Sequence record: OP595145.1
Length of the DNA: 64,000 nt
Origin: Escherichia phage vB_EcoM_DE16
Reading direction: 5' to 3' (one strand)
Shown here: piece after piece, positions 1,345-15,975 of the stretch
How the letters are laid out: each line of letters opens with the position of its first letter
How positions within the stretch are numbered: the first letter of the stretch is position 1
Program-made: the position numbers and the translations under genes
Notes under the pieces: generated by a model
The model's input: the letters and a program-made list of their open reading frames with translations, nothing else
The model's database searches: none
What the model was told of the DNA's origin: nothing

Positions 1345-2103
1345 AAGGAAACAATTAGCATGGCAATAATTATTGGGGGCGAAATGTTACCGCCACGGGC
1401 GGGAATGTTGAGCACTAAGAAAAGAGATAAACCTTAATCATGGGGGCGTAAATATCCGAGGATTGCCAACGGCGATCCGGCAGGATGTTGAGCAAGTTCT
1501 CTTAAACGTAAATAAAATCAGAAAATTCTTGATTTATTTTGGCTTTTATGTTAATAAACGTTTAAATAATAATCATTCTCATATAAATAATAGTCTGCTT
1601 GTCATGAGCGGGATTAGTTGACAGTGTTCCGTCATATGATGAGGTTGCCAAACCATTGATAAATAAGCGTTTGTGTGATTTATAATCAAGTGGCCCACCT
1701 TGTCGCTATGTTGGCATGAGCCTTGCATAAGTCATTGAATACGAATGATAATTATTCTCATTCGCATGATATTTGGGAATTGTCGCTGCGTGGACCCGAC
1801 GGCCCGAAAATTCGCGTTAAGCACTTCTTACGTATGCGCCATGATTTTTGCCATATCATATTGATTCTATTGGATATTCTTGCCATGATTGCCATGAAAC
1901 AGGGTGTCCCGAAATAATCTCTCCCCGTAGATATTTTGGGTTACTTTTTATACAAGAGTGGGGTGTCAAAAATAATCGGTATATATAGGATAATTGATAG
2001 GAATCCCCTATGATAATTCGATTGTAATTCCCTGAGATTGATCGTATGATGTTGGTGATTGATGATTGCCATGAAAGATGGCTAACGATGAGAGGAGATT
2101 ATC

Positions 2104-2478
2104 ATGCAAGAGAGTAAAAATATTCCGTTGAGTAGTGCAACATTGCTTCGCTTCTATAAAGCATGGATTGCCAACTATCCTGCAATGAATCGCACAACGA
2201 GTGGCTTATGTGGTTGTCTGGTAGATTATGTAGATGATTTTGTTGGTGAGACAACTAGAGAAGAAGATAGAAGATGGCGGGATAGTTTGTTAGACCGTTT
2301 GAAATATGAAATGAGGAAACAATTTACATGTGCAGGGCTGGACTACAATCTTCCGTTCAATGCAGATTGCATGGATTACCTTTCAGAGTGTATAAACTTG
2401 GCGTGTCATACCAACACGTTACGTCTTCAATGGGTGAAAGATCGCATCGAAGATGTAAATAATGCTTGCATTGAATAA
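2104..2478 (+). CDS. hypothetical protein, member 1 of six-copy paralogous family (FY..W..GAP..PF..GLC...PF...R..WVKDR)
   Basis: ORF 124 aa, SD GAGAGGAG upstream; shares motif set with 6746, 9976, 10741, 13579, 14883 genes. Confidence 0.7.
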   Translation: MQESKNIPLSSATLLRFYKAWIANYPAMNRTTSGLCGCLVDYVDDFVGETTREEDRRWRDSLLDRLKYEMRKQFTCAGLDYNLPFNADCMDYLSECINLACHTNTLRLQWVKDRIEDVNNACIE

Positions 2479-2537
2479 AAATGTCTGTATAGTGGTTTGC
2501 ATACCGCGCATAACAGATAGCCAATGAGGAGATTGAA

Positions 2538-2747
2538 ATGTCAAATATGAAAACTGTATCCTTGTATTTAGCTAACACTGATCGTGTGCACACCCTTGCT
2601 AATGCAAGTCGTGTACTCGTGCAGTTCCGAAACTTCGCACCGTCCGTTGTGACAGGCAGTGAAACGTGTGTGATCGATTTCATCAATGAATATTTCCACG
2701 GGAATCCTGTTGCTCGTCACTTCGTGGAGAATATGAAAGATGCATAA
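2538..2747 (+). CDS. hypothetical protein (69 aa)
   Basis: ORF with SD TGAGGAG upstream. Confidence 0.5.
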   Translation: MSNMKTVSLYLANTDRVHTLANASRVLVQFRNFAPSVVTGSETCVIDFINEYFHGNPVARHFVENMKDA

Positions 2748-2970
2748 CATGAAACGTATGAAAATTCGTATTGAGAATGATGGTGGTTATAAAGGATTGG
2801 CACATGCAAAATTTCCACTTGTGTTGGAAGCTACAGTGGAATACAGTGGGCTTGCTCATGTGCGATTCTCGAAGATGATGGAAGTGCAGGAGTGGTTTTG
2901 GGACGAGATAGATGCACGAGAAGGGGAAGATTATGTTTTCTTTCCTCACGAATATGAAATCGTTTATTAA
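2740..2970 (+). CDS. hypothetical protein (76 aa)
   Basis: ORF co-directional, start overlaps previous stop. Confidence 0.45.
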   Translation: MHNMKRMKIRIENDGGYKGLAHAKFPLVLEATVEYSGLAHVRFSKMMEVQEWFWDEIDAREGEDYVFFPHEYEIVY

Positions 2971-2973
2971 AGG

Positions 2974-3222
2974 TTGTGTGCAATGATCACACCACAACAG
3001 AATGAAGCAGCAATGGATCTTCTTGATAGTTTGTATTTCGATAACTGGTACTCTGAATGTGAATGGATGAATATGCAAACTCTGAAAGAGAAGACAGAAG
3101 CGTTGATTACAGTAGATCAATTTCTTGCAGAGACGGAAAGAATGAATTATGATATGGCATCTCGCGCACGACGCGTTTCCATTTTCAATAAAATGTTAGC
3201 ATTATGGGGAGGTAGAAAATGA
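2974..3222 (+). CDS. hypothetical protein (82 aa)
   Basis: ORF, co-directional early block. Confidence 0.5.
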   Translation: MCAMITPQQNEAAMDLLDSLYFDNWYSECEWMNMQTLKEKTEALITVDQFLAETERMNYDMASRARRVSIFNKMLALWGGRK

Positions 3223-3680
3223 GACAATTCACTATACTGGCAGCTTATGTGCAATGTGTTCACGATTATGTTAGTGCTCATACAGGTGTGCTGGAAGTTA
3301 CCAGTAAAATTGAAGGTAATATGGGTACTGTCTGTGTGCAACATACTTTATCCAATGTGCCGTTTAAAGTGTTCACTGTTGTAGCTGCCGATTACAATCG
3401 TGTAGATGTGCGTTTCTTGGATCATAATTTTCGTAACGCACTAGATAATATCGAAGATTATCTTCCCGTGAAACCTTTGTCATTTCCACCGAGTCGTGCA
3501 AATAATGTAGTGACAAACCTTAATGAAAGGAATGTGGCTATGCACAAAAAAGTCCGTCAACTGAAAACGCTGATGGAAATGCAAGAAGAGATTGAAAAAG
3601 AATTGAAAGAAGATTTTGGTATGCTTCCAAAAGACGCTTTGAAATGGTATGATGAACTAGGAGGAGAAAGTTATGAATAA
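3219..3680 (+). CDS. hypothetical protein (153 aa)
   Basis: ORF with SD GGGAGG upstream, ATGA overlap with previous gene. Confidence 0.6.
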   Translation: MRQFTILAAYVQCVHDYVSAHTGVLEVTSKIEGNMGTVCVQHTLSNVPFKVFTVVAADYNRVDVRFLDHNFRNALDNIEDYLPVKPLSFPPSRANNVVTNLNERNVAMHKKVRQLKTLMEMQEEIEKELKEDFGMLPKDALKWYDELGGESYE

Positions 3681-3867
3681 AGGAACTACTGTATATTTAG
3701 TGACTAAGAACACCCCAGGTTGGAGCCAATGCAGCACTGTCCCTTACAAGATCTGTGCAACATTAGAACTAGCACAACGTGCAGAAGCAGAAGTGGATGC
3801 CATGCAATACAGCTATGGTGAGATCATTCCTTTTACTCTTGAACAAGAAGGAGCACATCATGTTTAA
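3673..3867 (+). CDS. hypothetical protein (64 aa)
   Basis: ORF with SD AGGAGG upstream. Confidence 0.5.
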   Translation: MNKGTTVYLVTKNTPGWSQCSTVPYKICATLELAQRAEAEVDAMQYSYGEIIPFTLEQEGAHHV

Positions 3868-4315
3868 AGTAGGGTTTACTTATAAATTCAAAAGCGTTGC
3901 TGACCAAGGAGATATGGCAACACATGACAAAGCAAATATTGCTGTTTGCCAAGCGATTGGAAACGAAGTTTTCAAAGTTATGAATACAGATGATAAGTAT
4001 GGTCATGTTCTTGAGTTTTATATCAATGGCACCCTCTATACAGCAGGTGTTACCCCAGGGTTTAATTCGTATACTTATTTGATTGATAACGAAGAATTTA
4101 AATATTTTGAAGAAGTAAAGGAGGAAACAATGGGTAAAGCAGAACCACAATGGCATGTTGTGATCGTAGGATCAGAGTGTGTAGATGTTTGTTCTAGTTT
4201 TGAAAAAGCTTCTGAAGTCGCTACAAAAGCTAAGAAGGATTATCCGTCAAAGACGGTTGAGATTTACGCTCGTGTTGCAGTAGCAAACGCCACAATCACT
4301 ATTGATAAGGAGTAA
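3860..4315 (+). CDS. hypothetical protein (151 aa)
   Basis: internal ATG at 3860 preceded by GAAGGAG; track ORF 3779 start lacks SD. Confidence 0.6.
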   Translation: MFKVGFTYKFKSVADQGDMATHDKANIAVCQAIGNEVFKVMNTDDKYGHVLEFYINGTLYTAGVTPGFNSYTYLIDNEEFKYFEEVKEETMGKAEPQWHVVIVGSECVDVCSSFEKASEVATKAKKDYPSKTVEIYARVAVANATITIDKE

Positions 4316-4320
4316 AGCCA

Positions 4321-4776
4321 ATGTTCAAAGAAGGTCATGTCTACCGTTTCCAGGATGAAGATTATATGCGACTATATTCTACCTTTGATAACAGTATTGC
4401 TGCTATCATTGGAGAGAATTTTTTCGAGGTGTTGAGCACTGATGCAAATGGTAATATCTTGTCAATTGTTGTGATAGGGAGAGACGGTATTATCACTGCT
4501 AGTGATGGGGATCGTTACATAATCAATTCTGCTCATATAGATTATTTTGTTGACGGTGGTATTCGTGGTGGTCGTGGAAAACCCCAAGAAGAACCTGTTG
4601 ATACAACAAAAGAAGAGTGGTATGTTGTAATGACTGATGATACCTGTATTTCTGGATTTGAAAGTTACGAAGAAGCTTTGAAAGAAGCAGCAGAGCATAA
4701 AATGGCTAATCCTACAGAAGAGGTTGAAGTTTATAAACGTTTGGTTGTTGCTACCATCGGCGTATCTTTTGTTTAA
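4321..4776 (+). CDS. hypothetical protein (151 aa)
   Basis: ORF with SD TAAGGAG upstream. Confidence 0.6.
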   Translation: MFKEGHVYRFQDEDYMRLYSTFDNSIAAIIGENFFEVLSTDANGNILSIVVIGRDGIITASDGDRYIINSAHIDYFVDGGIRGGRGKPQEEPVDTTKEEWYVVMTDDTCISGFESYEEALKEAAEHKMANPTEEVEVYKRLVVATIGVSFV

Positions 4777-4788
4777 AAGGGGAATGTT

Positions 4789-5226
4789 ATGTTTAAAGTT
4801 AATGCTGTTTACTGTTTCAAAAGTAAAGCTGCCTGTGAAGCTTTCTCTGTGATCTCTGATGAAAATTTCAAAATGGCAGCTTTGATTGAAGGGTCTTGTT
4901 TCCGCGTCGAAGATGTTAGTGAATCAGGGTCTGTTTGCTCATTGACTTTATTGGACAGCGGGGATATTATTGAAGCTGGACAGTATCCGTTCAGGAGTTG
5001 GGAGATATTGTTAGCTCGCGGAGAGCGTAACTTTTTTATGTGCGTGTCTGCGGGGGAAGTTGTGAAAGAAACTAAGGATGTTTCTGTTTACAATTCTGAA
5101 TTTATAAGTTATAGTGAGTATCAACATTTGGAAGGCATTGTTGGTCACTTGTTATCTCTGATTGACATTGAATGTGACTTGCCTGAATCATTGAAAGAAG
5201 AGTTGAAAGCATTAGATCTGCTGTAA
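4789..5226 (+). CDS. hypothetical protein (145 aa)
   Basis: ORF with SD AAAGGGG upstream. Confidence 0.6.
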   Translation: MFKVNAVYCFKSKAACEAFSVISDENFKMAALIEGSCFRVEDVSESGSVCSLTLLDSGDIIEAGQYPFRSWEILLARGERNFFMCVSAGEVVKETKDVSVYNSEFISYSEYQHLEGIVGHLLSLIDIECDLPESLKEELKALDLL

Positions 5227-5253
5227 TGTTTCGCACAACGAAAGGAGAATAAG

Positions 5254-5553
5254 ATGAATCTGACCGAACAGTTACGCCGTATTGCAAAAGAAGCTTCCTT
5301 CAACTTCCCTGTTGAAGAAGTGATCGAGACATGTTTTGCTGAAGCACGAGCGGGAAACTCTTCAAGAAATTTCACGCCATCTGATTTTGGTTTGGATAAT
5401 TCTCCTACTCATCCAGGGGAAATCTACAATCAGGTGAAGTGGATGGATGAAGCAGTAGCAATTCTTCGTGAGCGTGGGCTTATTGTTTATAAAGAAATGG
5501 ATCTGAACGGGGCATACGAGTGGATCACTATTGATTGGTCCGAGGTGAAATGA
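5254..5553 (+). CDS. hypothetical protein (99 aa)
   Basis: ORF with SD AAAGGAG upstream. Confidence 0.6.
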   Translation: MNLTEQLRRIAKEASFNFPVEEVIETCFAEARAGNSSRNFTPSDFGLDNSPTHPGEIYNQVKWMDEAVAILRERGLIVYKEMDLNGAYEWITIDWSEVK

Positions 5554-5786
5554 TGAAAGGTAACAAGATGAAAGTTAATCAAGTGCCGAGCGCATACACT
5601 TTGTGGCTTGCGCGAGCGTTACACCAGACGATCAAAGACCCTAAGAAGCCAATGAAGAGTGGGAAGAAGTTTATGTCTAAGGGCAAAACAACCTTTGGCT
5701 TCACTCGTATGTCTGTCAAGATGAAAAGGCTGGGGTACAAGCCAAACTACGCTCGTTACCCTTCTGAATACAACTGGTTTGACTAA
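5550..5786 (+). CDS. hypothetical basic protein (78 aa)
   Basis: ATG at 5550 overlapping previous stop (ATGA), lysine-rich product. Confidence 0.5.
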   Translation: MMKGNKMKVNQVPSAYTLWLARALHQTIKDPKKPMKSGKKFMSKGKTTFGFTRMSVKMKRLGYKPNYARYPSEYNWFD

Positions 5787-5798
5787 AAGGAAAAAGCA

Positions 5799-6272
5799 AT
5801 GGCAGGTTTGAAACTGGAGATGTTGACAAAGCAAGAATTTGTTCCCGAACACGGTGAAACTTACATTGCTTTCTTGATTAGTGATTTTTATGGGGATTTA
5901 GAGTATGTTGAACTGGAGTGTGAGTTTCACTACCAAATGATCGACGCAGAAACTGGTTATTGTCTGGGTACGTCTGCGGTGTATAATGGTGATAATGGCA
6001 TTCCTTTTCATACCCCAATGAGGTACGAAGCGAAAAACCGATTCAAACTTCTCACAGAAGAAGAAAAAGAGACATATAAATATCACGAAGAGGAGGATCA
6101 ACGCTTCTGGTGGGAGAAAACTTGGTTCCTGTCTGATCGCCGTAATCTTCAGATTCACCCAGAAGAACTGGATGAAATGTCCATCGGGATTATGAAGAAG
6201 AAAGACTTCATGTACAAGGTGAGAGAAGCTAATAAGTTCCGTGTTGCAACTAAAGAGGAGAACAAAACATGA
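5799..6272 (+). CDS. hypothetical protein (157 aa)
   Basis: ORF with SD AAAGGAAAAAG upstream. Confidence 0.6.
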   Translation: MAGLKLEMLTKQEFVPEHGETYIAFLISDFYGDLEYVELECEFHYQMIDAETGYCLGTSAVYNGDNGIPFHTPMRYEAKNRFKLLTEEEKETYKYHEEEDQRFWWEKTWFLSDRRNLQIHPEELDEMSIGIMKKKDFMYKVREANKFRVATKEENKT

Positions 6273-6553
6273 AAACATTTATTCGCGTAAAACATGATCC
6301 AAACAGCAGTTACCCATACGCGTATGTTGAACGTCATGAAGGAGACTATTACACCATAAAACGTAAAGTCCCAACTGATACAGGGTTTAACTTTGATGTT
6401 ATTGCGCTGGATGATCAAGGTGTTGATAATCTGGTGAATGCATTACTCGCATTGAAGGAAGTACGACATGAAAATCAGACTAAAGGTAAAGTGGCTTTCG
6501 ATTCTTGTGATCGTTTAGCCGAAGAGATTGCCGAATGGCGTGATACTCACTAA
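6269..6553 (+). CDS. hypothetical protein (94 aa)
   Basis: ORF, ATGA overlap with previous gene, SD AGAGGAG. Confidence 0.6.
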   Translation: MKTFIRVKHDPNSSYPYAYVERHEGDYYTIKRKVPTDTGFNFDVIALDDQGVDNLVNALLALKEVRHENQTKGKVAFDSCDRLAEEIAEWRDTH

Positions 6554-6568
6554 AACAGGAGAAAGATT

Positions 6569-6745
6569 ATGGCTACTTTTCAACAATTGAAAGATGTTTC
6601 ACGTTTAGTAAGAAAAATCCGAGAAGCAGACGCTGCTGTGCGGAATGCATTAACGCCAGCAGAGCGTGAAGATCTTGAAGAGGAGGTGAAAACAGCCGAG
6701 AATGCTTTTGCTGTGTATCTTTCAACACTGTATACAGGAGGTTAA
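6569..6745 (+). CDS. hypothetical protein (58 aa, below ORF-track cutoff)
   Basis: ATG preceded by ACAGGAGAAAG; preferred over antisense track ORF 6573-6779. Confidence 0.45.
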   Translation: MATFQQLKDVSRLVRKIREADAAVRNALTPAEREDLEEEVKTAENAFAVYLSTLYTGG

Positions 6746-7060
6746 ATGTCAGAAGAACTAAAAGAATTTTATCAGGCATATCATAACTGGCTGTTAGCTG
6801 GTGCTCCAGATAATAATCCTTTCTGGCACGATAAAGGATTATGTAGTTGCCTCTACCTTTGGACTGGTGGTTACGATGATCTAAATTATGAAATGCAAAT
6901 GCAATTTCGAGAAGCAGGGTTGTCTGAAGAATACCCGTTTGATGACGGAGACTGGTTTAAATATGATTTTGCACAAAGAAACGGGCTATTGCATTTGAAT
7001 GCTGCCCGTATAAAATGGGTAAAAGACCATGCTACACAGGAGGATGTGCAATGCCAATAG
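6746..7060 (+). CDS. hypothetical protein, member 2 of paralogous family
   Basis: ORF 104 aa sharing FY..W..GAP..PF..GLC..YPF..R.KWVKD motifs. Confidence 0.7.
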   Translation: MSEELKEFYQAYHNWLLAGAPDNNPFWHDKGLCSCLYLWTGGYDDLNYEMQMQFREAGLSEEYPFDDGDWFKYDFAQRNGLLHLNAARIKWVKDHATQEDVQCQ

Positions 7061-7251
7061 TGTTTAGTTTCTTAGTAATTGTTATGGTTGTTCTTTTCGC
7101 GGCATGGCTTTGGGATTTTGACCCAGGAGCAGCGCAGCAAAGAGCTACAGACTGGAAAGAACAGTGTATTGTGCTCAAACATGAACGAAATGCGGAGAAA
7201 TTTCTTGACCTAGAGTGTGATCGCCTTGTAAGATACAAGCAAGATAAATAA
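7051..7251 (+). CDS. small membrane protein (66 aa)
   Basis: ATG at 7051 after CAGGAGG; hydrophobic N-terminal helix IVFSFLVIVMVVLFAAWLW. Confidence 0.55.
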   Translation: MPIVFSFLVIVMVVLFAAWLWDFDPGAAQQRATDWKEQCIVLKHERNAEKFLDLECDRLVRYKQDK

Positions 7252-7265
7252 CTTTGAGGTGCAAA

Positions 7266-7454
7266 ATGGTAATTGAGATTAAACTTGAATATGCTGGGGC
7301 TGTTGCTCTGATCGCACAAATGCTTGGAGCAAAGATTGAAGAAGTGTATATCAATGCCTGGAGCGTAGAGATTGATGTTCCTATGGACAACATTGCTAAT
7401 CGCTTGCTGGTGGCAGAGTGTGAACGCACCAACATAATCTACAAAGGAGCATAA
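7266..7454 (+). CDS. hypothetical protein (62 aa)
   Basis: ATG at 7266 with SD-like TGAGGTG; track start is TTG. Confidence 0.5.
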   Translation: MVIEIKLEYAGAVALIAQMLGAKIEEVYINAWSVEIDVPMDNIANRLLVAECERTNIIYKGA

Positions 7455-7455
7455 T

Positions 7456-7677
7456 ATGAAAATTAGAGTTTGTGATGTATTGGGTTATGTTGGTTTTGAG
7501 AATGTTCAGATTCCTTTTGTTGTTGAAGCACATCTTGTTAGCGATGATATGACAACATTCTTTGTTACGATAGAAGAAATGTCCAAAGTTGAGGGATGGG
7601 AGTGGTTTGAAGAAGATGTTTGGGAAGGTTGTGATTACGTATTTTTCTCTGATGAAGTGAATGTTCTTTCGGAGTAG
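7456..7677 (+). CDS. hypothetical protein (73 aa)
   Basis: ORF with SD AAAGGAG upstream. Confidence 0.55.
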   Translation: MKIRVCDVLGYVGFENVQIPFVVEAHLVSDDMTTFFVTIEEMSKVEGWEWFEEDVWEGCDYVFFSDEVNVLSE

Positions 7678-7679
7678 GT

Positions 7680-7886
7680 ATGTCTTGTTTTACAAAAGCA
7701 GTATCCATATGTAAGAAACAGTATGAAAGTGATTACGGAATATTTAATATTCCAGCGGATCATACGGAGTATTGTTCATGTGGTGGCAGAATGAAGAAAA
7801 CAGTGATTTATGCGGATAATGAAGATGAACTTGTTCCGGTTATGGTTTGCAAAGCTTGTCATTCTGTTAAAACATTAAAAGCGTAA
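7680..7886 (+). CDS. small zinc-ribbon-like protein (68 aa)
   Basis: two Cys pairs (CSCGG ... CKAC) in product. Confidence 0.5.
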   Translation: MSCFTKAVSICKKQYESDYGIFNIPADHTEYCSCGGRMKKTVIYADNEDELVPVMVCKACHSVKTLKA

Positions 7887-7981
7887 GGAGTCGGGACACC
7901 CGACGATTGGAGCTAAAAATTTTGCGTACAACCCTTTCCGCCCAACAGGGGCGCGTCGGGTAAATAAAGAGGAGAGTTTAT

Positions 7982-8380
7982 ATGAAAAAGATCATCGTAG
8001 GTTTATTGTTACTCATTGCATCACTTGGAACAGCAAATGCGTCTCAAGTTTATGAGTGTGTGTCAGATGTGGTTGTTAAAAATCTGAAAGGTGAAGTGAT
8101 TTCTGGTCCTAAGAAAATGGCTTCTGTTGTCATTAATAAAGATAACTCCTTTATCCTTAAAAATTCAGGTGGTGCTTTGATGAGTGGCATTCTGCAATAC
8201 ACAGGAGAAAAAAGTAAAGATGGTAGTGCTATGTATGGTTCACAACAGTTTATTGGCACTACTGAAGTAGTAATGATGCGCACAGAGTATCGAGACACTT
8301 TAGCTTGGTTTGCATTTCTAAAAAATGATAAAACAATAACGAATGTTCTTACTCTAGAAGCTGATTGTACGCAACGATAA
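7982..8380 (+). CDS. secreted or periplasmic protein with signal peptide (132 aa)
   Basis: N-terminus MKKIIVGLLLLIASLGTANA resembles Sec signal peptide; SD AGAGGAG. Confidence 0.6.
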   Translation: MKKIIVGLLLLIASLGTANASQVYECVSDVVVKNLKGEVISGPKKMASVVINKDNSFILKNSGGALMSGILQYTGEKSKDGSAMYGSQQFIGTTEVVMMRTEYRDTLAWFAFLKNDKTITNVLTLEADCTQR

Positions 8381-8390
8381 GGGGGTATTT

Positions 8391-8846
8391 ATGACTAAAG
8401 TGCGACATTATGCTGTAAACTGCAACGATGTTTGGCGTTTGTGTCCTGATGATCCGACAGAAGGCACATTTGTAAGATATGAGGATTATAAAGAGTTATC
8501 GGATGCTGTGATCGCATTGTTAACTGATATCCGTTCACGTTACCCAGGACAAGATTTCACTTGCCCTCACATCAAACTTCTTGCTTGTCTGGTAGAAGGT
8601 GAGAAAGAAGTGGAAGATGGCTTCAAGCGTGTAGAGTATCAAGGTGAAACTTTAGAGGTTCCTGAATTTGTTAATTATATTGCAACAGATTCGAGTGGCG
8701 AGCGTTATGGTTACAGTCATAAACCGGAGATTCCAGATTTCGTTTATGCGTGGCGTATTCCTTATCAAGTTTTTAATGCTGCGGATTACTGGTATTTAGG
8801 AGAAGGAGATAGCCGTAATTGGCGTGACTCCTTGGCTCAGGTTTAA
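8391..8846 (+). CDS. hypothetical protein (151 aa)
   Basis: ORF with SD TAAGGGGG upstream. Confidence 0.6.
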   Translation: MTKVRHYAVNCNDVWRLCPDDPTEGTFVRYEDYKELSDAVIALLTDIRSRYPGQDFTCPHIKLLACLVEGEKEVEDGFKRVEYQGETLEVPEFVNYIATDSSGERYGYSHKPEIPDFVYAWRIPYQVFNAADYWYLGEGDSRNWRDSLAQV

Positions 8847-8850
8847 TACT

Positions 8851-9114
8851 ATGAAAGAAACATTACCAGCAGCATACCGTTTGAATGATGAACGTATTTG
8901 GGAGTGGACCGACGTTTCTTGTTTTTACCCTGAAATAGTTCAATATTGGCGAGCGAAAGGGTGTGTTGTAGTTATCAACCCTTGTGGACCAGTAGATGAA
9001 GATTGTTTGTATCTCAATGGAAAGTGGCACAGTTATTGTCGCTGGCCTTTTGAGTGGATGTGTAAAGAAGATCTCCCAGAGGGTTGGGAGTATCCGAAAG
9101 CAAATAGGAGATAA
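8851..9114 (+). CDS. hypothetical protein (87 aa)
   Basis: ATG at 8851 in frame within track ORF 8824. Confidence 0.45.
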   Translation: MKETLPAAYRLNDERIWEWTDVSCFYPEIVQYWRAKGCVVVINPCGPVDEDCLYLNGKWHSYCRWPFEWMCKEDLPEGWEYPKANRR

Positions 9115-9115
9115 T

Positions 9116-9478
9116 ATGTCTAAAGATTTTGTTGAAGTGTTTGTCAAAGACGAAGAAACTGGTTTAGGCACAGGTTTCATTTGCGAAGAAACTTTTAAGC
9201 GTGAACAAGAAAAAGCTATTCTTATGCACCGCTATGATCATGCATTAGAACAATGGAAAAATGCAGAACAAAAATGCAAAAACCTTTACGCAGAAAATAG
9301 AAAACTACAAGATCAAATGGAGTTGTTAGCTATCAGTTTACGATCTCTCATTTTGGCTGTAGAAGATGGTTTTAAAAATCCAGATGGTTTTCCTGTGAGC
9401 GATATTGAACATGATTTGTATCTTGCTCGTGGTGCTTACTTTTATGTTAAACAGAAGCCTGTAGAAGGAGAGAAATGA
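9116..9478 (+). CDS. hypothetical coiled-coil protein (120 aa)
   Basis: ATG at 9116 after AATAGGAG; track ORF 8996 start lacks SD. Confidence 0.55.
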   Translation: MSKDFVEVFVKDEETGLGTGFICEETFKREQEKAILMHRYDHALEQWKNAEQKCKNLYAENRKLQDQMELLAISLRSLILAVEDGFKNPDGFPVSDIEHDLYLARGAYFYVKQKPVEGEK

Positions 9479-9675
9479 TGGAAGAAAAACTGGAACGTAT
9501 TATCGAGTTAGCCATGTCTATTGGCTACGACGATTGTTTTCTCCAAACTATTGGAGAAACACAGGACGATTACGACTCTTGGGTGAAAGAGTTGGAAGAA
9601 CTCAAAACTTCCTTGATTGCTGACTTTGCTGAAGCAGAGGATAAAGCAGATCGTTACAACTATCTGTGTCGATAA
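9475..9675 (+). CDS. hypothetical acidic protein (66 aa)
   Basis: ORF with SD GAAGGAG, overlap with previous stop. Confidence 0.55.
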   Translation: MMEEKLERIIELAMSIGYDDCFLQTIGETQDDYDSWVKELEELKTSLIADFAEAEDKADRYNYLCR

Positions 9676-9678
9676 GCC

Positions 9679-9707
9679 TTGACATTTATTTTATGTATGG
9701 TATACAT
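9679..9707 (+). promoter_or_regulatory. sigma70-like promoter (TTGACA, ~16-17 nt, TATACA)
   Basis: perfect -35 hexamer in intergenic gap before 9738 gene. Confidence 0.5.
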
Positions 9708-9737
9708 ACATTATCAACGTGAGCAAGGTGGTGTAAT

Positions 9738-10010
9738 ATGAATAAAGATCGGTTTCTTTCTTTAGTCGCGGAAGCGCCTTTTGATGTTCTTGGGGTGAGA
9801 TTATGGAAAGACAGAAACTATGGGTTAGATGTTCAAACATATTCTCTTTGGTTGGTTGGGGAGCACAGCTTAGATGAAAGCTTGTGCATGGGTAGGGATT
9901 CTCGTTCCCTTTGTTTAAAGTTTAGAAGCTTAGAACGCGCAAACAAAGAGCAAGAAAAACTAACGAGGTGGCTAAATGAAAACAAGCGCAGGGTTGATGG
10001 AGTTTTATAA
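9738..10010 (+). CDS. hypothetical protein (90 aa)
   Basis: ORF with SD AAGGTGG upstream. Confidence 0.55.
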   Translation: MNKDRFLSLVAEAPFDVLGVRLWKDRNYGLDVQTYSLWLVGEHSLDESLCMGRDSRSLCLKFRSLERANKEQEKLTRWLNENKRRVDGVL

Positions 10011-10302
10011 AATTTATCTAGCATGGATTGATGTTGGTGCTCCTGATGGTAAACCTTTTCGGCGAGATTGCGGTTTGTGTGCCAACTTGTTCGATTATGT
10101 GCACGCAGATGGCTACAATCTCCTTATAACAACCTTGTCAGACGAAATGCACTCACAGTTTTACTACAAAGGGTTGAGTCAAGAACTCCCTTTCAATGAG
10201 AACTACGATGCATATGTCTTAGAATCAGATGCAGAGGTATGTCACCTGAACGTGGACAGGATTAATTGGGTAAGAGATCGTATTGCAGAGGAGGATGAAT
10301 AA
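9976..10302 (+). CDS. hypothetical protein, member 3 of paralogous family
   Basis: 108 aa ORF with family motifs (EFYKIYLAWIDVGAP ... GLC ... LPF ... RINWVRDR). Confidence 0.7.
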   Translation: MKTSAGLMEFYKIYLAWIDVGAPDGKPFRRDCGLCANLFDYVHADGYNLLITTLSDEMHSQFYYKGLSQELPFNENYDAYVLESDAEVCHLNVDRINWVRDRIAEEDE

Positions 10303-10529
10303 TGTCGGATTATAACTGGTATGAACTTGAGGCCGTTTGTCAGTTTTACGACTCAATAGTTCTGCGTGATCCAATCTGTCAAGAATTAAGTCGCCGTGCA
10401 AGTGCATTGGCAATTAATGTTAAAGTGCACGATTGGAACGCAGATCTGGAAAAAGAATTGGAATTCCTTTTGGAAACAACCCGTGTCTTCCATAAAGTGT
10501 TCCCTGAATGGTTTGAGATGGAGGAATAA
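10302..10529 (+). CDS. hypothetical protein (75 aa)
   Basis: ORF with SD GAGGAGG upstream. Confidence 0.55.
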   Translation: MSDYNWYELEAVCQFYDSIVLRDPICQELSRRASALAINVKVHDWNADLEKELEFLLETTRVFHKVFPEWFEMEE

Positions 10530-10531
10530 GC

Positions 10532-10744
10532 ATGTGGATTGTCCGTCTTAAGTATGATGGCAAGTTTCCGTGGGAGAAAGATGTTTGTGCCTGTGATTCA
10601 GCAGCACATGCCAAAGCAGCGGGTCAGGCAGTAGTTGACATGTATAACAACACCCCCTTTGATCCAGAAATGGCAGGTGTTACAATGAGCATGTTCACTT
10701 ACTATTCTTTTGAGGTTTACTATCACGAAGGAGAGTGGAAATGA
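10532..10744 (+). CDS. hypothetical protein (70 aa)
   Basis: ORF with SD GATGGAGG upstream. Confidence 0.55.
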   Translation: MWIVRLKYDGKFPWEKDVCACDSAAHAKAAGQAVVDMYNNTPFDPEMAGVTMSMFTYYSFEVYYHEGEWK

Positions 10745-11061
10745 GCGAAGAACTATTAACATTTTACCGCACGTATTTGGCATGGTTGGAAGCTGGTGCT
10801 CCTGAAGGTGAACCGTTCACCCGTTGCACAGGTTTGTGCACGAACCTCTATGATTTTTACGACATAGGAGAAAGCGAACGATACGAACCTGTACTGGATG
10901 AAATGCATGAGCAGTTCTACCTCAAAGGTTTGGTTATGGTGTTGCCTTTCAACAGTAATTTTGGAAAGTACACCTTAGAAGCGGAAAAAAGCCGTTGTCA
11001 TTTGAATGTGGATCGTGTGAACTGGGTAAAAGAACGTGTAGCAGAAGAAATAATTGGTTGA
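10741..11061 (+). CDS. hypothetical protein, member 4 of paralogous family
   Basis: ATG at 10741; product closely resembles 9976 gene product. Confidence 0.7.
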   Translation: MSEELLTFYRTYLAWLEAGAPEGEPFTRCTGLCTNLYDFYDIGESERYEPVLDEMHEQFYLKGLVMVLPFNSNFGKYTLEAEKSRCHLNVDRVNWVKERVAEEIIG

Positions 11062-11115
11062 CAGAAGGATCTGTCTTTGTCATAATCATCTCATCGAAAC
11101 AGAGAGGAGAAAATC

Positions 11116-11529
11116 ATGAAAAAGTTTATTTGCACCCGTTCCACTAACAGTGATATCCTTGTAGGTAAAGTTATCAAAGGAGAACTCTTCCATGCAAACG
11201 GTAAGAAATATATTCTGCTGAAAGATTCTTTCAACGGGGAATATCCGCGCTGCACTTTCTTCAATTACAATACTCCATTTGCTTTAGAAGGAGATGCTTG
11301 GGAATGGGCTGAACTCAATCCTTGTTGTGAGGAAGAAGAATCTATGTTCTTAGGTTTAAACGTTTACCGTGTAGATTACACCATGTGCGGAGCGGAACAT
11401 TCTGTTCGCGTAGAAGCCGAATCCAAACTACAAGCACCTTTCAAGGCGGGATTGACTTTGGGTCATTGTTTGGCAAACATTGAAGATGTTGTGATCCAAA
11501 GAGTTGTTTTAGAGAAAGAGGCTATTTGA
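11116..11529 (+). CDS. hypothetical protein (137 aa)
   Basis: ORF with SD AGAGGAG upstream. Confidence 0.6.
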   Translation: MKKFICTRSTNSDILVGKVIKGELFHANGKKYILLKDSFNGEYPRCTFFNYNTPFALEGDAWEWAELNPCCEEEESMFLGLNVYRVDYTMCGAEHSVRVEAESKLQAPFKAGLTLGHCLANIEDVVIQRVVLEKEAI

Positions 11530-11581
11530 CAGAAGACGGCACAATATTTAAATATAAAGATTAACCACAAAGGAGATAGAT

Positions 11582-11881
11582 ATGCAAGTTGAAGACCTGA
11601 TCAAAATTTTGAATGAAGCCAAAGAGAAAGGTGCTATCAAGGACTGGAAACGTGAAACAAGTGAAGACCTATCTCACTGTTGCCGAGAATTTTACATCGA
11701 AGGTATTGCTAACGATCATTATACTATTGAATGGTATATTAACTTAATGACTCTTAAGCACGGTTCATTTGAGGTTTGGTTTGATGACATTGATGTAAAT
11801 GGTTTTCATCCTGGCTATAAAATCGCTATGCAGCTATCTTATCGTAGAGAAGTTGTAGCACATTTGGGTTTACATAACTAA
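11582..11881 (+). CDS. hypothetical protein (99 aa)
   Basis: ORF with SD AAAGGAG upstream. Confidence 0.6.
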   Translation: MQVEDLIKILNEAKEKGAIKDWKRETSEDLSHCCREFYIEGIANDHYTIEWYINLMTLKHGSFEVWFDDIDVNGFHPGYKIAMQLSYRREVVAHLGLHN

Positions 11882-11891
11882 GGAGAAAAGA

Positions 11892-12215
11892 ATGCAAGCA
11901 GTTGTTAACGAAGCTATTATGAACTTATCCTTCTTGTTAGCTGGTTTAGGAGGTGTTCTCATAGGTTTGGCTCTTATCTGGTGTATTCGTCGATTAATCG
12001 GGTACCGACAAAAAGGTGTTTCATGTTTTGTATCTTACAATTTTACAACTGCTTACAGCAATGAGGTTGGATCTGGCAATGCTCAAGCATTTTTACCAAC
12101 ATATCCTCCTACGGTGGAAGATATTCGAAACTTGGAAGTAGAACTTATGGGACTAAGTGATAACTATACATCTCTAGTTATTCAAAATATTTTTCGACTA
12201 AAACAGGAGGCGTGA
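11892..12215 (+). CDS. membrane protein (107 aa)
   Basis: hydrophobic segment LSFLLAGLGGVLIGLALIWCI; SD TAAGGAG. Confidence 0.55.
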   Translation: MQAVVNEAIMNLSFLLAGLGGVLIGLALIWCIRRLIGYRQKGVSCFVSYNFTTAYSNEVGSGNAQAFLPTYPPTVEDIRNLEVELMGLSDNYTSLVIQNIFRLKQEA

Positions 12216-12428
12216 ATGAAGGTACATTACCCTCATCCCTTTGATCCTAAAAACAAAGCCGTAATTCTTCGTCAGTGGGAACGGGTTTGTCGTACTAAAT
12301 GTCCAATCAATAGCCCACACAATGTAGACAAGGACTATCTTGGGACATTTGTTGAATACACTTACATAGACAAAAACAAGCGTAAACAACATGTCGAGGA
12401 ATACTGCTTAAGAGTAGAATGGCTGTAA
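12216..12428 (+). CDS. hypothetical protein (70 aa)
   Basis: ORF with SD CAGGAGG upstream. Confidence 0.55.
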   Translation: MKVHYPHPFDPKNKAVILRQWERVCRTKCPINSPHNVDKDYLGTFVEYTYIDKNKRKQHVEEYCLRVEWL

Positions 12429-12440
12429 ATAATAAATACC

Positions 12441-12469
12441 TTGACAAGTGTTTATTCGTTTTGTAAAGT
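12441..12469 (+). promoter_or_regulatory. sigma70-like promoter (TTGACA, 17 nt, TAAAGT)
   Basis: intergenic, upstream of recombinase gene. Confidence 0.5.
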
Positions 12470-12498
12470 GAGAATACAGCAATGGTTTAGGAGTGGTT

Positions 12499-13170
12499 AT
12501 GAAAAAGTTTGTTGTTTACAGTCGTCTTTCTAAACAGAAAAAAGGTGAGGCACAATATGGTATGGAGAGCCAAGAGAACGATATCCGTTACTTCTTAGAC
12601 TCTGTGCCTGATGCGGAAGTTATTGGTCAATTTTCTGAATACTATTCGGGTAAGGGCGATTGGAAGCAACGTAAAGAACTGGTTAAAGCGGTTGAAATGT
12701 GTAAAGCTACCGGAGCAACTTTATTGGTAGCTAAAGTTGACCGCTTAGGTCGTAACAACGCCTCCGTAGCAACTCTTCTGGAGATGATCGATGTTAAGAT
12801 AGCCATCATGCCAGACGCAGATAAAATGGTTATACAGCTTCTATCTGTTCTGGCTGAACAAGAAGTTAGAGGTATTGCTGATCGTATTAAAAAGGGTCTT
12901 GCTGTAGCAAAAAGTAAAGGTGTTTTATTAGGTAGTGCTAATCCTAAAACTGCCGCTGCACGTAGAAAAGGAAAAATGGAATACAACTCTGTTAAAGCAG
13001 ATGCTTTTGCAGAGACATTCCGTGAACGCTTGGAGATCCTTAGAGATTTAAATACACCTTACAAAACTATTGCTGAAAAATTCAATAGTAAGAAAATAGC
13101 AACAGCACGTGGTGGTAAATGGGATGCTAAAACTGTTTCTCGTTTGTGTGCCAGACTTAACATTAAATAG
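12499..13170 (+). CDS. serine recombinase (resolvase/invertase family)
   Basis: N-terminal YSRLS catalytic-serine context, VAKVDRLGRN motif, C-terminal HTH-like tail; 223 aa. Confidence 0.7.
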   Translation: MKKFVVYSRLSKQKKGEAQYGMESQENDIRYFLDSVPDAEVIGQFSEYYSGKGDWKQRKELVKAVEMCKATGATLLVAKVDRLGRNNASVATLLEMIDVKIAIMPDADKMVIQLLSVLAEQEVRGIADRIKKGLAVAKSKGVLLGSANPKTAAARRKGKMEYNSVKADAFAETFRERLEILRDLNTPYKTIAEKFNSKKIATARGGKWDAKTVSRLCARLNIK

Positions 13171-13178
13171 GAGAGGAT

Positions 13179-13601
13179 ATGAAACAAGAAAATGAATCTG
13201 TAGATCACTTAATCATGCTGTCAGCCCTTTTTGCCGGATGGGACGTATTTTTTGAAAATTTGTTCAATTCTGCTACAGATGGTTCCGATTTTATGCGGCA
13301 GTTTAAACGACGAACTGTTGAGGACTATGCTTTCTATTCAGGTCGGATTGAAAAAGGTTACGAAGATACAAATACAACACTCACCATTAAAGTTTTAGAT
13401 GTGATGTTTAGTGTTATAGATGCTATCGACGAAAGTCTTCCGATCCTAGACAATTGTAATACGAAAGCCTATGTTTACAAAATAGCTCGTGCTTATGTGT
13501 CTGCAAACAGTTGTCTTCTTTCCACCCAGATTGCCGTGAACAATCTTGCCAACTTGTTTGATGAAGGAGAAACTTTTTATGACAATCGATTTGAAGTGTA
13601 A
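13179..13601 (+). CDS. hypothetical protein (140 aa)
   Basis: ORF with SD TAGGAGAGG upstream. Confidence 0.6.
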   Translation: MKQENESVDHLIMLSALFAGWDVFFENLFNSATDGSDFMRQFKRRTVEDYAFYSGRIEKGYEDTNTTLTIKVLDVMFSVIDAIDESLPILDNCNTKAYVYKIARAYVSANSCLLSTQIAVNNLANLFDEGETFYDNRFEV

Positions 13602-13944
13602 GAGGATTCTTTTAGATTTCTATAATAATTGGTTAGAACACCTCCGTCTCTTTCCAAGAGAAAGTGGTTACGCTGATGTTGGCTTATGCCGAGGTCTACG
13701 TATGTATATAAGTGATGAATTTCGGGCCGAGCATTCTTTAGCATATGCTGTTTATGGTATGCAATTAGCCAGTTTTGAAAACGCTGGCTTAGATACAACT
13801 TTCCCATTTAACACAGCAAAATCTTTTGAGCAAGAGTGTAAGGAAAAACGTTGCATGTTTAATGAAAAACGTGTACAGTGGGTTAAGGATCGAGTTAAAC
13901 AACTGGAACAAGAGTTGGATTTCTTCTATGATGAGGCAGAATAA
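13579..13944 (+). CDS. hypothetical protein, member 5 of paralogous family
   Basis: ATG 13579 after GAAGGAG; motifs DFYNNWLEH ... GLC ... FPF ... RVQWVKDR. Confidence 0.65.
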   Translation: MTIDLKCKRILLDFYNNWLEHLRLFPRESGYADVGLCRGLRMYISDEFRAEHSLAYAVYGMQLASFENAGLDTTFPFNTAKSFEQECKEKRCMFNEKRVQWVKDRVKQLEQELDFFYDEAE

Positions 13945-14216
13945 TGGATAGACAAACCTTAAAAACAATGGCAGATGCCACTAATTCCCCGTACTTTGAA
14001 AAAGTAAGTAAATTGGTAGCTCAAGCCGCAGAGGAAGGATATTATAACATAAACATCCACAACCCAAGTCTTATACTAGAAATGCCAAGTGATAAGAAGA
14101 TACAAGAAAGTATCTGTGAAGGTATTGTTAGTTACTGGCGCGAGCGTGGGTGTGGTGCAAACATGGCTTTAGACAGTGCAAACATTGTAAGATATATAAA
14201 TATTTCTTGGGGGTGA
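13944..14216 (+). CDS. hypothetical protein (90 aa)
   Basis: ORF, start overlaps previous stop. Confidence 0.55.
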   Translation: MDRQTLKTMADATNSPYFEKVSKLVAQAAEEGYYNINIHNPSLILEMPSDKKIQESICEGIVSYWRERGCGANMALDSANIVRYINISWG

Positions 14217-14220
14217 TTTT

Positions 14221-14505
14221 ATGATTCAATGCACTCATATCCAAATTACTTGGAGAGATGAACTTTACCATTTGGGACAATTTACTGTAGGGGAAACATA
14301 CCCTATCATTAAACATAATCCTAACATCGCAAACTTTGACAGGATGGTTCTTGTTGAGGACGATCTAGGTCAAACTTATTCTTTAGATCTAAAATATCCG
14401 TTTTCTTACGGCTACGATTGGATCGTTACTTTTGAAGACGTGGAGGAAAATAAAACAATGAACGAAAAAATTCTTGGTATTATCGTTGTGAACTGCCGCC
14501 AGTAG
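14221..14505 (+). CDS. hypothetical protein (94 aa)
   Basis: ORF with SD GGGGGTG upstream. Confidence 0.55.
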   Translation: MIQCTHIQITWRDELYHLGQFTVGETYPIIKHNPNIANFDRMVLVEDDLGQTYSLDLKYPFSYGYDWIVTFEDVEENKTMNEKILGIIVVNCRQ

Positions 14506-14531
14506 GTGAAAAGGTTATCTTTGTTCCTGAT

Positions 14532-14831
14532 TTGGAAAGATATTCTTGGGACAGTTCTTATTCTGTTCCTAAAGAAGGCACCGAAGTTGAAGTTATTGCA
14601 CATCGCACAACTTCGCATGGTAACGACGTAGCAGTTGTTTTCTGGGATGATGAAGGTGCTGCTTGTGCAGGTGGCTTTGTTGCAGGTAATTTTGAACCCC
14701 TGCCAGATCCTTTGAAGGAGGCAATTTTAGGCGTAGCTTCTTTTGGACTCTCTTACACATCTGCACAAGAGATCGTAGAAGGTATTTTAAACGGTACCGT
14801 TCCAAACGAAATTTTTAAACAGATTAAATAA
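14532..14831 (+). CDS. hypothetical protein (99 aa), start uncertain (TTG only)
   Basis: frame open from 14454 with no ATG; possible frameshift with 14221-14505. Confidence 0.35.
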   Translation: MERYSWDSSYSVPKEGTEVEVIAHRTTSHGNDVAVVFWDDEGAACAGGFVAGNFEPLPDPLKEAILGVASFGLSYTSAQEIVEGILNGTVPNEIFKQIK

Positions 14832-14836
14832 TAGTT

Positions 14837-14864
14837 GCACCCCGTTCTGCGGGGTGTTATTGTA
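14837..14864 (+). terminator. Rho-independent terminator (CACCCCG-TTCTG-CGGGGTG + T-rich)
   Basis: perfect 7-bp GC stem then TTATTGT. Confidence 0.65.
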
Positions 14865-14882
14865 TATGTAAAGGAGGCGCTA

Positions 14883-15221
14883 ATGTATTACACTGAAGAC
14901 TACATATTGTATAACTTTTTTAAAGGCTGGTTGAAATGGGCGGAACAAGCTCCTGTCGGAGATTGTGTTTTTCCTTGGGATTCTCGTCAAGGCTTGTGTC
15001 GTTGTTTGGAAGATTGGCTTATAACCACAAACTACAATTCAGAAACTAAGAAATCTACATCAAACAGATTAAAAATGTTATTTGAAGAAGATGGTTTAGA
15101 TCCAATTTATCCTTTCGGTGAGGAAAGTTTCCACAATGGTCTTTTCCTTGGCACTCAACATTATGATAAAGATCGTGTAGATTGGGTAAAAGAAAAGGTA
15201 GCACAGTATGAATGGGGTTAA
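14883..15221 (+). CDS. hypothetical protein, member 6 of paralogous family
   Basis: ATG 14883 after AAAGGAGG; motifs NFFKGWLKW ... GLC ... YPF ... RVDWVKEK. Confidence 0.65.
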   Translation: MYYTEDYILYNFFKGWLKWAEQAPVGDCVFPWDSRQGLCRCLEDWLITTNYNSETKKSTSNRLKMLFEEDGLDPIYPFGEESFHNGLFLGTQHYDKDRVDWVKEKVAQYEWG

Positions 15222-15411
15222 GAATTATCACCGCTGGTTAGAAAGCTATCTTAAGAAATGTGAACTTGGTGTTCCAGGTTATACTTACGACACGGACGAG
15301 ATTCTTGATGAAATGGAAGTTTGGTTTAAAGAGCCTCGTGAACTATTGGCAAATATTCTAATGGCTTGGGATGGTACGGCACAAAGCATCGGAGGAGGTA
15401 AAAATGAGTAA
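15208..15411 (+). CDS. hypothetical protein (67 aa)
   Basis: ORF overlapping previous gene end; no clear SD. Confidence 0.4.
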   Translation: MNGVKNYHRWLESYLKKCELGVPGYTYDTDEILDEMEVWFKEPRELLANILMAWDGTAQSIGGGKNE

Positions 15412-15555
15412 GAAATTGTTTAATATTCGTGAGAATCGTGATGGATCGTTCTCTGTAGTCAATGAGTTTAACGTTTCGGTTGGGACTTTTATTACTAAAC
15501 GTCAAGCAGAACAAGTAAGAGATACTTTAAACAAGTAAGTTTTTAAGGGGGACTT

Positions 15556-15975
15556 ATGTTAGGTAAGATCAAAGCTTTTTTCAAACGTATTGTTGAAGGA
15601 AGTCCAACAGAAGGTGCATTAGGAAGATCTCTAACAGGAGAACCACTTGCCATAATTTCTATCAGTCGGCATGGTGGATATTCCATTCGACAAACACCTT
15701 TAGGTATAGAAGGTAGTATGCTTTCTTGGACAATATCTCAAGTTGGTGATAACAGACTTGCAGCTATAGCGTTACTTCGTGGGGAGTATGACTATTGTTT
15801 ATCAGCATCTTGTAAAAAGCACCTCATAGAGCACATTAGAGACAGAGTAGAAAGAGAAGGCGGATACTTCTTCGAAACTAAGAGAAACGAACAAGGAACT
15901 CTTGACTTCACTAAGGTTTACTGGGACAATCATACTCGTCAAACTGTTGAACAACTTCTGGAGGAAAGATGTTAA
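15556..15975 (+). CDS. hypothetical protein (139 aa)
   Basis: ORF with SD TAAGGGGG upstream. Confidence 0.6.
   Translation: MLGKIKAFFKRIVEGSPTEGALGRSLTGEPLAIISISRHGGYSIRQTPLGIEGSMLSWTISQVGDNRLAAIALLRGEYDYCLSASCKKHLIEHIRDRVEREGGYFFETKRNEQGTLDFTKVYWDNHTRQTVEQLLEERC

Follow-up and report, generated by a model that had tools for sequence, protein, structure and literature searches.

Small early genes of unknown function are commonly present in several copies in large lytic phages. Here we describe such a set, plausibly early in expression, namely six related genes of Escherichia phage vB_EcoM_DE16 (sequence record OP595145.1), which we analyzed within a 64,000-nucleotide stretch of that genome, referred to below as the window, and which we compare with the closest described systems. 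The T7 gene encoding Ocr (gp0.3) is a first-expressed anti-defense gene of a lytic phage. The likeness of the present family to Ocr is one of position only, in that homologs lie near the left ends of other phage genomes and the first of the six genes, member 1, directly follows a noncoding genome head; the two are not homologous, and the charge of the family proteins is ordinary. Arn of phage T4, an inhibitor of McrBC whose structure has already been solved, is likewise a small, acidic, early phage protein but has no sequence, profile, or fold similarity to the family. Dap1 and Dap2 of phage PaoP5 form an early counter-defense pair targeting Lon and ExsA (PMC13083879), and they too are small early proteins of a lytic myovirus. 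The comparison with this pair was prompted by weak fold matches to other Pakpunavirus proteins. Neither proved to be a family member, since the best match of the family hidden Markov models (HMMs) to the six-frame translation of PaoP5 bases 1 to 12000, which include ORF003 to ORF005, had an E value of 0.6. The anti-Dnd protein JSS1_004, a gp0.7-type kinase, is unrelated to the family.

Two further systems invite comparison. The early-left modules of lambdoid phages (Ea22-like, Ea8.5, and DUF551) are connected with the family through two fusion proteins, P0160 and P0170, and through a neighboring gene pair labeled "ea8.5" by one depositor; these modules are themselves uncharacterized, and the fusions show a common genomic habitat, not a function. 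Poxviruses contain multigene families and "gene accordions," such as the amplification of K3L. By analogy, the six genes would be diverged paralogs of a small helical scaffold, with tandem copies changing in number through unequal recombination at one locus; here, however, most copies are stable and under purifying selection, and no sign was seen of a copy number that responds to host pressure. The sequences of the family and an automatic cluster had already been deposited in databases as hypothetical proteins. The present description adds how large the family is, that neither Pfam nor the PDB contains it, that its confidently predicted fold is unmatched, that it occupies early operons in phages of unrelated types, and how its paralogs and copy number behave.

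Six homologous genes at the head of the genome

The window is part of a Phapecoctavirus (phAPEC8-like) genome. Its bases 2000 to 15300 are 98.2% identical to Escherichia phage Mt1B1_P17 over 100% of their length, and about 125 further records, from Phapecoctavirus and related Stephanstirmvirinae, are similar to the same region. The six genes lie within a block of approximately 18 kb of small, tightly packed plus-strand genes at the genome head, which is preceded by a 1.5-kb noncoding stretch and followed by a long minus-strand block; the GC skew of the window switches sign at about 20 kb and again at about 56 kb. An earlier reading made from the sequence alone (the sequence-only reading) had listed six plus-strand open reading frames of 104 to 124 amino acids as a paralogous family, and all six were present at the starts it had claimed. 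They are given below with coordinates that include the stop codon and with the E values of their matches to the phage protein cluster phrog_2510.

Member 1: 2104-2478, plus strand; 124 amino acids; first gene after the 1.5-kb noncoding region; phrog_2510 E value of 1.1e-25, family HMM E value of 5e-40; Shine-Dalgarno sequence GAGGAG.
Member 2: 6746-7060, plus strand; 104 amino acids; phrog_2510 E value of 8e-29; its ATG directly adjoins the upstream stop codon.
Member 3: 9976-10302, plus strand; 108 amino acids; phrog_2510 E value of 4.9e-31; the copy used for the structure model.
Member 4: 10741-11061, plus strand; 106 amino acids; phrog_2510 E value of 1.6e-30; its nearest paralog is member 3.
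Member 5: 13579-13944, plus strand; 121 amino acids from the ATG at 13579; phrog_2510 E value of 4.5e-26; Shine-Dalgarno sequence AAGGAGA; overlaps the upstream gene by 23 nucleotides.
Member 6: 14883-15221, plus strand; 112 amino acids; phrog_2510 E value of 6.1e-27; Shine-Dalgarno sequence AAGGAGG; the most divergent of the six.

For member 5, alternative starts chosen by depositors give proteins of 127 to 140 amino acids. Member 1 is named gp001 or gp002 in several deposited genomes, and the exact sequences of all six are already public, in clusters of 63 to 198 members.

The six proteins were compared with each other by blastp, which gave pairwise identities of 23 to 52% and E values from 5e-4 (member 1 versus member 6) to 1e-40 (member 3 versus member 4). 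When all six-frame translated segments of the window were searched with an HMM built from the six, exactly these six were recovered (E values of 1e-38 to 2e-45), and the next match had an E value of 0.16. They also formed the largest paralog set of the window in an all-against-all blastp comparison. These results demonstrate that the relatedness of the six is far above chance, and the proposal of a six-member homologous family was thereby confirmed. Two further parts of that proposal were also borne out: the members are interspersed among unrelated genes, and members 3 and 4 are the closest pair, being mutual best matches with 52% identity.

Each of the six ATGs had a Shine-Dalgarno sequence 5 to 9 nucleotides upstream, and members 2 to 5 adjoined or overlapped the preceding gene by 0 to 35 nucleotides, as in translationally coupled operons. 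The ratios of nonsynonymous to synonymous substitution rates (dN/dS) between orthologs were well under 1, as for member 2, with a dN of 0.008 and a dS of 0.46. Taken together with the confident predicted fold described below, the start sites, gene junctions, and substitution ratios indicate that the genes are translated.

Alignment of the six with MAFFT gave 16 invariant columns, which in member-1 numbering are the initiator Met, L14, F17, P26, G34-L35-C36, L39, F74, G78-L79, P84-F85, R107, and W110-V111. These columns include the G-L-C, P-F, R, and W-V elements of the motif set named by the sequence-only reading, but some of its motifs needed correction. "GAP...PF" was present in members 2, 3, and 4 only, with P alone invariant across the six; the motif given as (Y/L)PF was present in the form (L/Y/F)PF; and the C-terminal "HLN" was variable, with members 1, 5, and 6 having HTN, MFN, and HYD, respectively. 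The resulting family signature consists of LxxFY..W in helix 1, G-L-C where helix 2 starts, E..QF in helix 3, an (L/Y/F)PFN loop, and H.N..R..WV(K/R)D(R/H) at the entry to helix 5. Variation was concentrated in the connectors.

The same pattern was found in a wider sample. Across 205 domain instances, L13, F16, Y17, W20, G36, L37, C38 (202 of 204), F66, P76, F77 (203 of 204), R99 (200 of 201), and W102 were near-invariant; S10, E61, Q65, N78, Y84, E87, H94 (72%), and N96 were strongly conserved; and the signature residues G-L-C, P-F, and R..W(V/I) occurred in 99% of the domains. In an alignment of 122 diverse sequences, C35, P72, F73, and R95 (member-3 numbering) were strictly invariant, and the mean column identity was otherwise approximately 25%.

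Distribution, predicted fold, and early position

All six proteins matched phrog_2510 (E values of 1.1e-25 to 4.9e-31, approximately residues 1 to 110), which is catalogued as being of unknown function, and their weaker matches in the same resource (phrog_6418, phrog_27059, and phrog_2176) were all listed as "unknown function." The phrog_2510 profile has 219 columns, and the six cover only its first half (positions about 5 to 113). Two homologs in Justusliebigvirus "alia" carry the depositor's tag VOG7392, from pVOG; the PHROG and pVOG groups are automatic clusters without function, structure, or literature. Beyond this phage, a 24-sequence profile searched exhaustively with HMMER recovered 1,868 representative clusters, defined at the 50% identity level, at E values of 1e-3 or lower, and 819 at 1e-10 or lower. 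A word-indexed search recovered close relatives only. Judged from these sequences, the family is not peculiar to this phage. Most of the clusters were single-domain proteins of 100 to 125 amino acids, but about twenty of the top 150 had two tandem domains and one had three. In addition, the family domain was fused to DUF551 (Pfam E value of 2e-8) in P0160 and, in P0170, to an N-terminal module that is also found in the temperate Hafnia phage yong1. A search with the fusion partners returned hypothetical proteins only.

Searches of curated resources gave uniformly negative results. None of the six matched Pfam or NCBIfam, none of the 122 diverse members reached any Pfam gathering score, and no defense-protein profile in PADLOC-DB was matched by any of the six at an E value of 1 or lower. 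PDB chain sequences were not matched by the six proteins, by a 6-sequence profile, or by a 122-sequence profile, the last even at E values up to 10. Sub-threshold matches to YaeQ, ARMC9_LisH, YfkB, and 3feu were spurious. Taken together, the lack of Pfam and PDB matches and the 1,868 clusters demonstrate that the family is large and absent from curated resources. We found no paper naming it by PHROG identifier, locus tag, or motif, and the genome papers on Stephanstirmvirinae and rV5 do not discuss the paralogs.

A tblastn search with member 3 gave matches at 624 places in 245 of 50,697 phage records. The hosts of these phages were Escherichia, Klebsiella, Rhizobium, Achromobacter, Salmonella, Erwinia, Ralstonia, Pseudomonas, Delftia, and others, all of them Proteobacteria. 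Among 72,556 plasmid records, only one contained a match, and an association with plasmid leading regions was dropped because of this single record. The contrast between 245 phage records and 1 plasmid record indicates that the family is restricted to phages.

The AlphaFold2 model of member 3 has five helices, with a predicted local distance difference test score of 93.9 and a predicted template modeling (TM) score of 0.86. BFVD models of 15 homologs superposed on it with TM scores of 0.77 to 0.89, and the same fold was predicted for uncharacterized proteins of Rhizobium, Achromobacter, Burkholderia, Delftia, Pectobacterium, Klebsiella, and Pseudomonas phages. A PDB fold search with the member 3 model gave no match. 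By inspection, the six sequences contain no signal peptide or membrane segment. The homologs P0051 and P0134 have N-terminal hydrophobic stretches, which we read as a pair of membrane segments with a basic stretch after them (KMKRKN in P0051); this reading of the sequence, which is not the output of a tool, would place the domain in the cytoplasm. The family is thus modeled as a cytoplasmic domain of about 105 residues with five predicted helices.

The earlier description of the genes as early is plausible on the basis of position, both from the block of small plus-strand genes that follows the 1.5-kb noncoding region and from homologs in early- or host-promoter operons of other phages. In the N4-like Klebsiella phage KP8, the homolog gp007 is downstream of three annotated early promoters and is placed between RNA polymerase subunit genes. 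In the phiKMV-like Burkholderia phage JG068, the homolog gp5 belongs to the first operon, downstream of the host promoters and ahead of the first terminator. Homologs were located 2 to 3 kb from the left end in N4-like podoviruses and 1 to 4 kb from the left end in T7/phiKMV-like phages, and in one 43-kb contig the homolog is the first gene of a rightward operon. No transcriptome for this phage group was found in the literature. A sigma-70 consensus scan of the window was not above background, with 63 sites versus 54 expected. Directly after member 4, there is a near-consensus promoter-like site (11058-11086; TTGACA-17-CATAAT, with TG upstream) and a terminator-like site (11060-11075). A strong terminator-like hairpin (14837-14857) is directly upstream of member 6, and a terminator is annotated at the same position in phage Schickermooser. 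The promoter-like site after member 4 and the hairpin before member 6 suggest operon boundaries within the block.

The stretch directly upstream of member 1 (560-2103) has features of its own. Its 1.5 kb contain no convincing open reading frame and are A-rich (44% A in 600-1200), with recurring hexamers of the CAACAA/AATAAT type, and the stretch has 90 to 96% identity to its counterparts in Schickermooser, ZCKP1, and SF1-1 and 72% identity to that in phiWec179. No RNA family was detected with Rfam in bases 1 to 20000. The stretch could serve as a promoter or regulatory region, contain an origin, or represent a genome end. Two near-identical GC-rich hairpins (AAGGGGCGCAC[T/C]AAGCGCCCTTT, 96% identical) at 9-31 and 574-596 lie on either side of an isolated gene (141-560), with the second of them predicted as a terminator on either strand.

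Evolution of the copies

The identity of the family and its evolution are the near-certain parts of our explanation. Members 2, 5, and 6 each scored higher against homologs outside this genome than against their own paralogs. The best non-orthologous match of member 2 outside was P0093 (48.5% identity, 89 bits), versus 71 bits for member 3, and the corresponding outside and inside scores were 62 and 45 bits for member 5 and 65 and 37 bits for member 6. Member 3 was 42 to 44% identical to proteins of Pectobacterium phage Arno18 or phage Sadiya, which is equal to its similarity with members 1 and 2. The higher outside scores argue that the six lineages predate this genome or were acquired separately and did not arise in a single in situ burst, so the "old expansion" in this genome put forward by the sequence-only reading was not supported. 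Only the pair of members 3 and 4 looks like a more recent duplication.

Diversifying selection, the second part of that suggestion, was not supported either. Ortholog dN/dS values were 0.00 to 0.75, mostly 0.02 to 0.4, which is the range found for neighboring genes. The summed values for the family versus Schickermooser, phiWec179, and ZCKP1 were 0.13, 0.41, and 0.26, and those for the neighbors were 0.23, 0.17, and 0.24. The comparison with phiWec179 thus showed a modest rise (0.41 versus 0.17, each summed, with three genes); overall, the family values were not above those of the neighbors, which argues against gene-wide diversifying selection. Member 2 orthologs had dN/dS values of only 0.00 to 0.02, and members 2, 4, and 6 were at least 94% identical across their own clades. 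The member-1 clade alone was hypervariable, with variation that included insertions and deletions in the helix 2-3 connector, loop 1, and the helix 4-5 loop.

Orthologs with at least 60% identity were present in 79, 61, 65, 41, 64, and 64 records for members 1 to 6, respectively. Compared with the 62 records that match the region at 95 to 99% DNA identity, these counts indicate that members 2, 3, 5, and 6 are close to fixed in the genus and that member 4 is accessory. Member 2 was at least 99% identical in 57 phage records, member 3 had orthologs with 80 to 100% identity in about 62, and members 5 and 6 were at least 95% and at least 90% identical, respectively, in 64. The copies are old lineages that evolve separately and are maintained by purifying selection. 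The block itself (bases 2000 to 20000 of the window) is strongly mosaic: within the same phage pair, the protein identity of adjacent orthologs varied between 100% and less than 40%, and their dS between about 0 and saturation, a pattern that points to frequent recombination or gene replacement.

The number of copies detected by the family HMM was 6 in the window and 6 in SF1-1. Schickermooser also had 6, with two tandem copies at the head and without member 4, as did ZCKP1, in which two copies are at the head and one gene of the member 3/4 pair is missing. There were 9 copies in phiWec179, consisting of three head copies plus extras, and 2 in the examined region of Justusliebigvirus "alia." Copy number among relatives therefore ranges from 2 to 9, with tandem copies being gained and lost at the array head. 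In a DNA alignment, the extra head copy of Schickermooser was missing from the window, with the junction inside the N-terminal codons MQESKN(V/I)PLSS that are common to the tandem copies, as expected from unequal crossing-over. No decayed extra copy was found upstream of member 1.

Candidate roles and surrounding genes

The six-gene family is real and is a reasonable candidate for a role in host takeover or counter-defense. Our best guess, a weakly supported one to which we assign a probability of about 0.4, is that the proteins serve as early binding modules for the capture of host factors or defense proteins. They would be made early in infection and would act in the host cytoplasm as small, nonenzymatic binding modules, and their targets would be host proteins, either takeover targets or components of anti-phage defense. 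The conserved helical core, with a patch formed by helix 5, the Cys, and the Arg, would provide a common scaffold or docking surface, and the target choice of each paralog would be set by the variable connectors (helix 2-3, loop 1, and helix 4-5) and the tails. Paralog-specific targets would explain the retention of several nonredundant copies, and a binding-module role would explain the two- and three-domain fusions as one polyvalent protein. Consistent with this, the near-invariant residues are mostly hydrophobic or aromatic (L13, F16, Y17, W20, L37, F66, P76, F77, and W102) and look like core, variation falls in the connectors, and the domain recurs in two- and three-domain proteins and in fusions to DUF551 and to other modules of prophage early regions. 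The maintenance of several paralogs under purifying selection and the variable number of tandem head copies (1, 2, or 3) are also consistent with it.

Several observations weigh against binding modules. No experiment, expression data, or partner was found in the literature for any member, and no anti-defense or takeover gene was recognized among 45 neighboring proteins. Members 2, 5, and 6 hardly vary within the genus, unlike the usual arms-race pattern. Finally, unusually many polar residues are conserved (C38, R99, N96, H94, E61, Q65, N78, and E87), and these fit a conserved active or ligand site no less well than they fit a variable binder.

These polar residues are central to the main alternative, a possible although unlikely one, that each protein is a small enzyme or a binder of a small molecule or cofactor, in which the Cys at the start of helix 2 and the Arg, His, Asn, Glu, and Gln would form one site and the paralogs would share chemistry and differ in substrate or context. 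The invariance of C35 and R95 in the 122 sequences at about 25% mean column identity favors such a site, as do the frequencies of the same Cys (202 of 204) and Arg (200 of 201) across the domains, the strong conservation of H94, N96, E61, Q65, N78, and E87, and the fact that this conservation spans phages of alpha-, beta-, and gammaproteobacteria. In helix 5, positions 99 to 107 each have a dominant residue or class and would occupy more than one helix face, as the geometry is inferred. Several specific identities suggested by motif inspection were rejected. HEPN proteins are all-helical with an R-x4-6-H motif where the last helix begins, and this identity was rejected on motif order and the absence of a fold match. 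The Erv/ALR sulfhydryl oxidases, which have five helices and a CxxC by the FAD site, were suggested by the "CHLN" motif; only one Cys is conserved here, the second position of the pair is variable, and no Erv/ALR chain was among the fold matches. AhpD-like and zinc-site ideas were ruled out, with no conserved ligands and no fold matches.

We consider it quite unlikely that the proteins instead serve the phage's own program, as modulators of RNA polymerase, of replication, or of the early-to-middle switch, with no role in anti-defense. Homologs do lie in early operons beside transcription machinery in N4-like phages, as for KP8 gp007 between the RNA polymerase subunit genes, and the near fixation and high conservation of members 2, 5, and 6 in the genus, like the strong purifying selection, resemble those of core functions. 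It is improbable that one ancestral gene expanded in this phage lineage and that diversifying selection then drove its copies apart: members 3 and 4, only 760 bp apart, are each other's best matches, unequal recombination continues to add and remove tandem head copies, and the helix 2-3 connector of the member-1 clade is hypervariable, but members 2, 5, and 6 are nearer to outside proteins than to the genome's own paralogs, ortholog dN/dS (0.00 to 0.75) exceeds that of neighbors only in the modest rise versus phiWec179, and members 2, 4, and 6 are at least 94% conserved.

Arn-like anti-restriction proteins, that is, DNA mimics inhibiting restriction nucleases, can be dismissed as highly improbable, for although one protein in the member-1 cluster (CAM6581850.1) was named "Anti-restriction nuclease" by its depositor, the six are acidic, and they occupy what would be the first-expressed part of the genome, by analogy with the generally known position of T7 Ocr, the family profile aligned to T4 Arn by hhalign with a probability of only 0.4% (E value of 0.14 over 9 columns), HMMs and blastp gave no signal for arn or arn.1 to arn.4, no PDB sequence or fold matched even though the PDB copy searched should hold the Arn structure, the net charge is ordinary for the region, and all other depositors say "hypothetical." Homology to T4 Arn is effectively refuted. 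The isoelectric points of the six are 4.5 to 5.3, and the median of the neighbors is 4.97; acidity equal to that of the neighbors is uninformative and gives no sign of DNA mimicry, and a DNA mimic proposed from acidity was ruled out on this ground.

Should the proteins prove to be takeover or counter-defense effectors, the family, at about 1,900 clusters at 50% identity, would be among the larger uncharacterized families of this kind. A broader and rather doubtful extension is that they represent a hitherto unrecognized, structurally novel class of early effectors across myo-, podo-, and siphoviruses of Proteobacteria, in which the Cys/Arg surface would dock on or modify one host hub and the connectors would recruit different targets, so that paralogs, fusions, and the head array would make up a modular toolkit for counter-defense or host takeover, comparable in a bacterial virus to the multigene families of poxviruses. 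The family is present in therapeutic-type coliphages (phAPEC8 and phi92-like) and in N4-like and T7-like phages. It offers a clean target for a new Pfam/DUF entry, structure determination, and a defense-panel or interactome screen, and the divergent copies in one genome provide a natural specificity series. It is also well-documented genomic dark matter and would not surprise a specialist.

Among the 45 neighboring proteins, Pfam identified only a resolvase and four DUFs, and the listed PHROG matches had no functional description; three of the 45 matched phrog_3710. The gene contexts of distant homologs were uninformative. The resolvase is a full-length serine recombinase (12493-13170; Pfam Resolvase E value of 5e-18; "DNA invertase" in relatives) located between members 4 and 5 of this virulent myovirus, and its Schickermooser counterpart is shorter (387 bp) and annotated as partially conserved only. 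Other small paralog sets occur in the block. Three adjacent genes (3857-4312, 4321-4776, and 4789-5226) are paralogous (blastp E values of 4e-15 and 3e-4), as are the genes at 2740-2970 and 7456-7677 (37% identity, E value of 3e-12), the second of which is labeled "protein ea8.5" in the SF1-1 record, a label that is unconfirmed. The adjacent small genes at 16539-16754 and 16768-16986 (24% identity, E value of 1e-3) both end in ...AEW and are possibly a tandem pair. Elsewhere in the window, two larger minus-strand open reading frames (33010-33858 and 35296-36294) form a paralogous pair with 27% identity (E value of 7.5e-6), and the plus strand carries 10 tRNA genes at 57066-59177 (Met, Arg, Ser, Asn, Thr, Gly, Gln, Pro, Ile, and Met).

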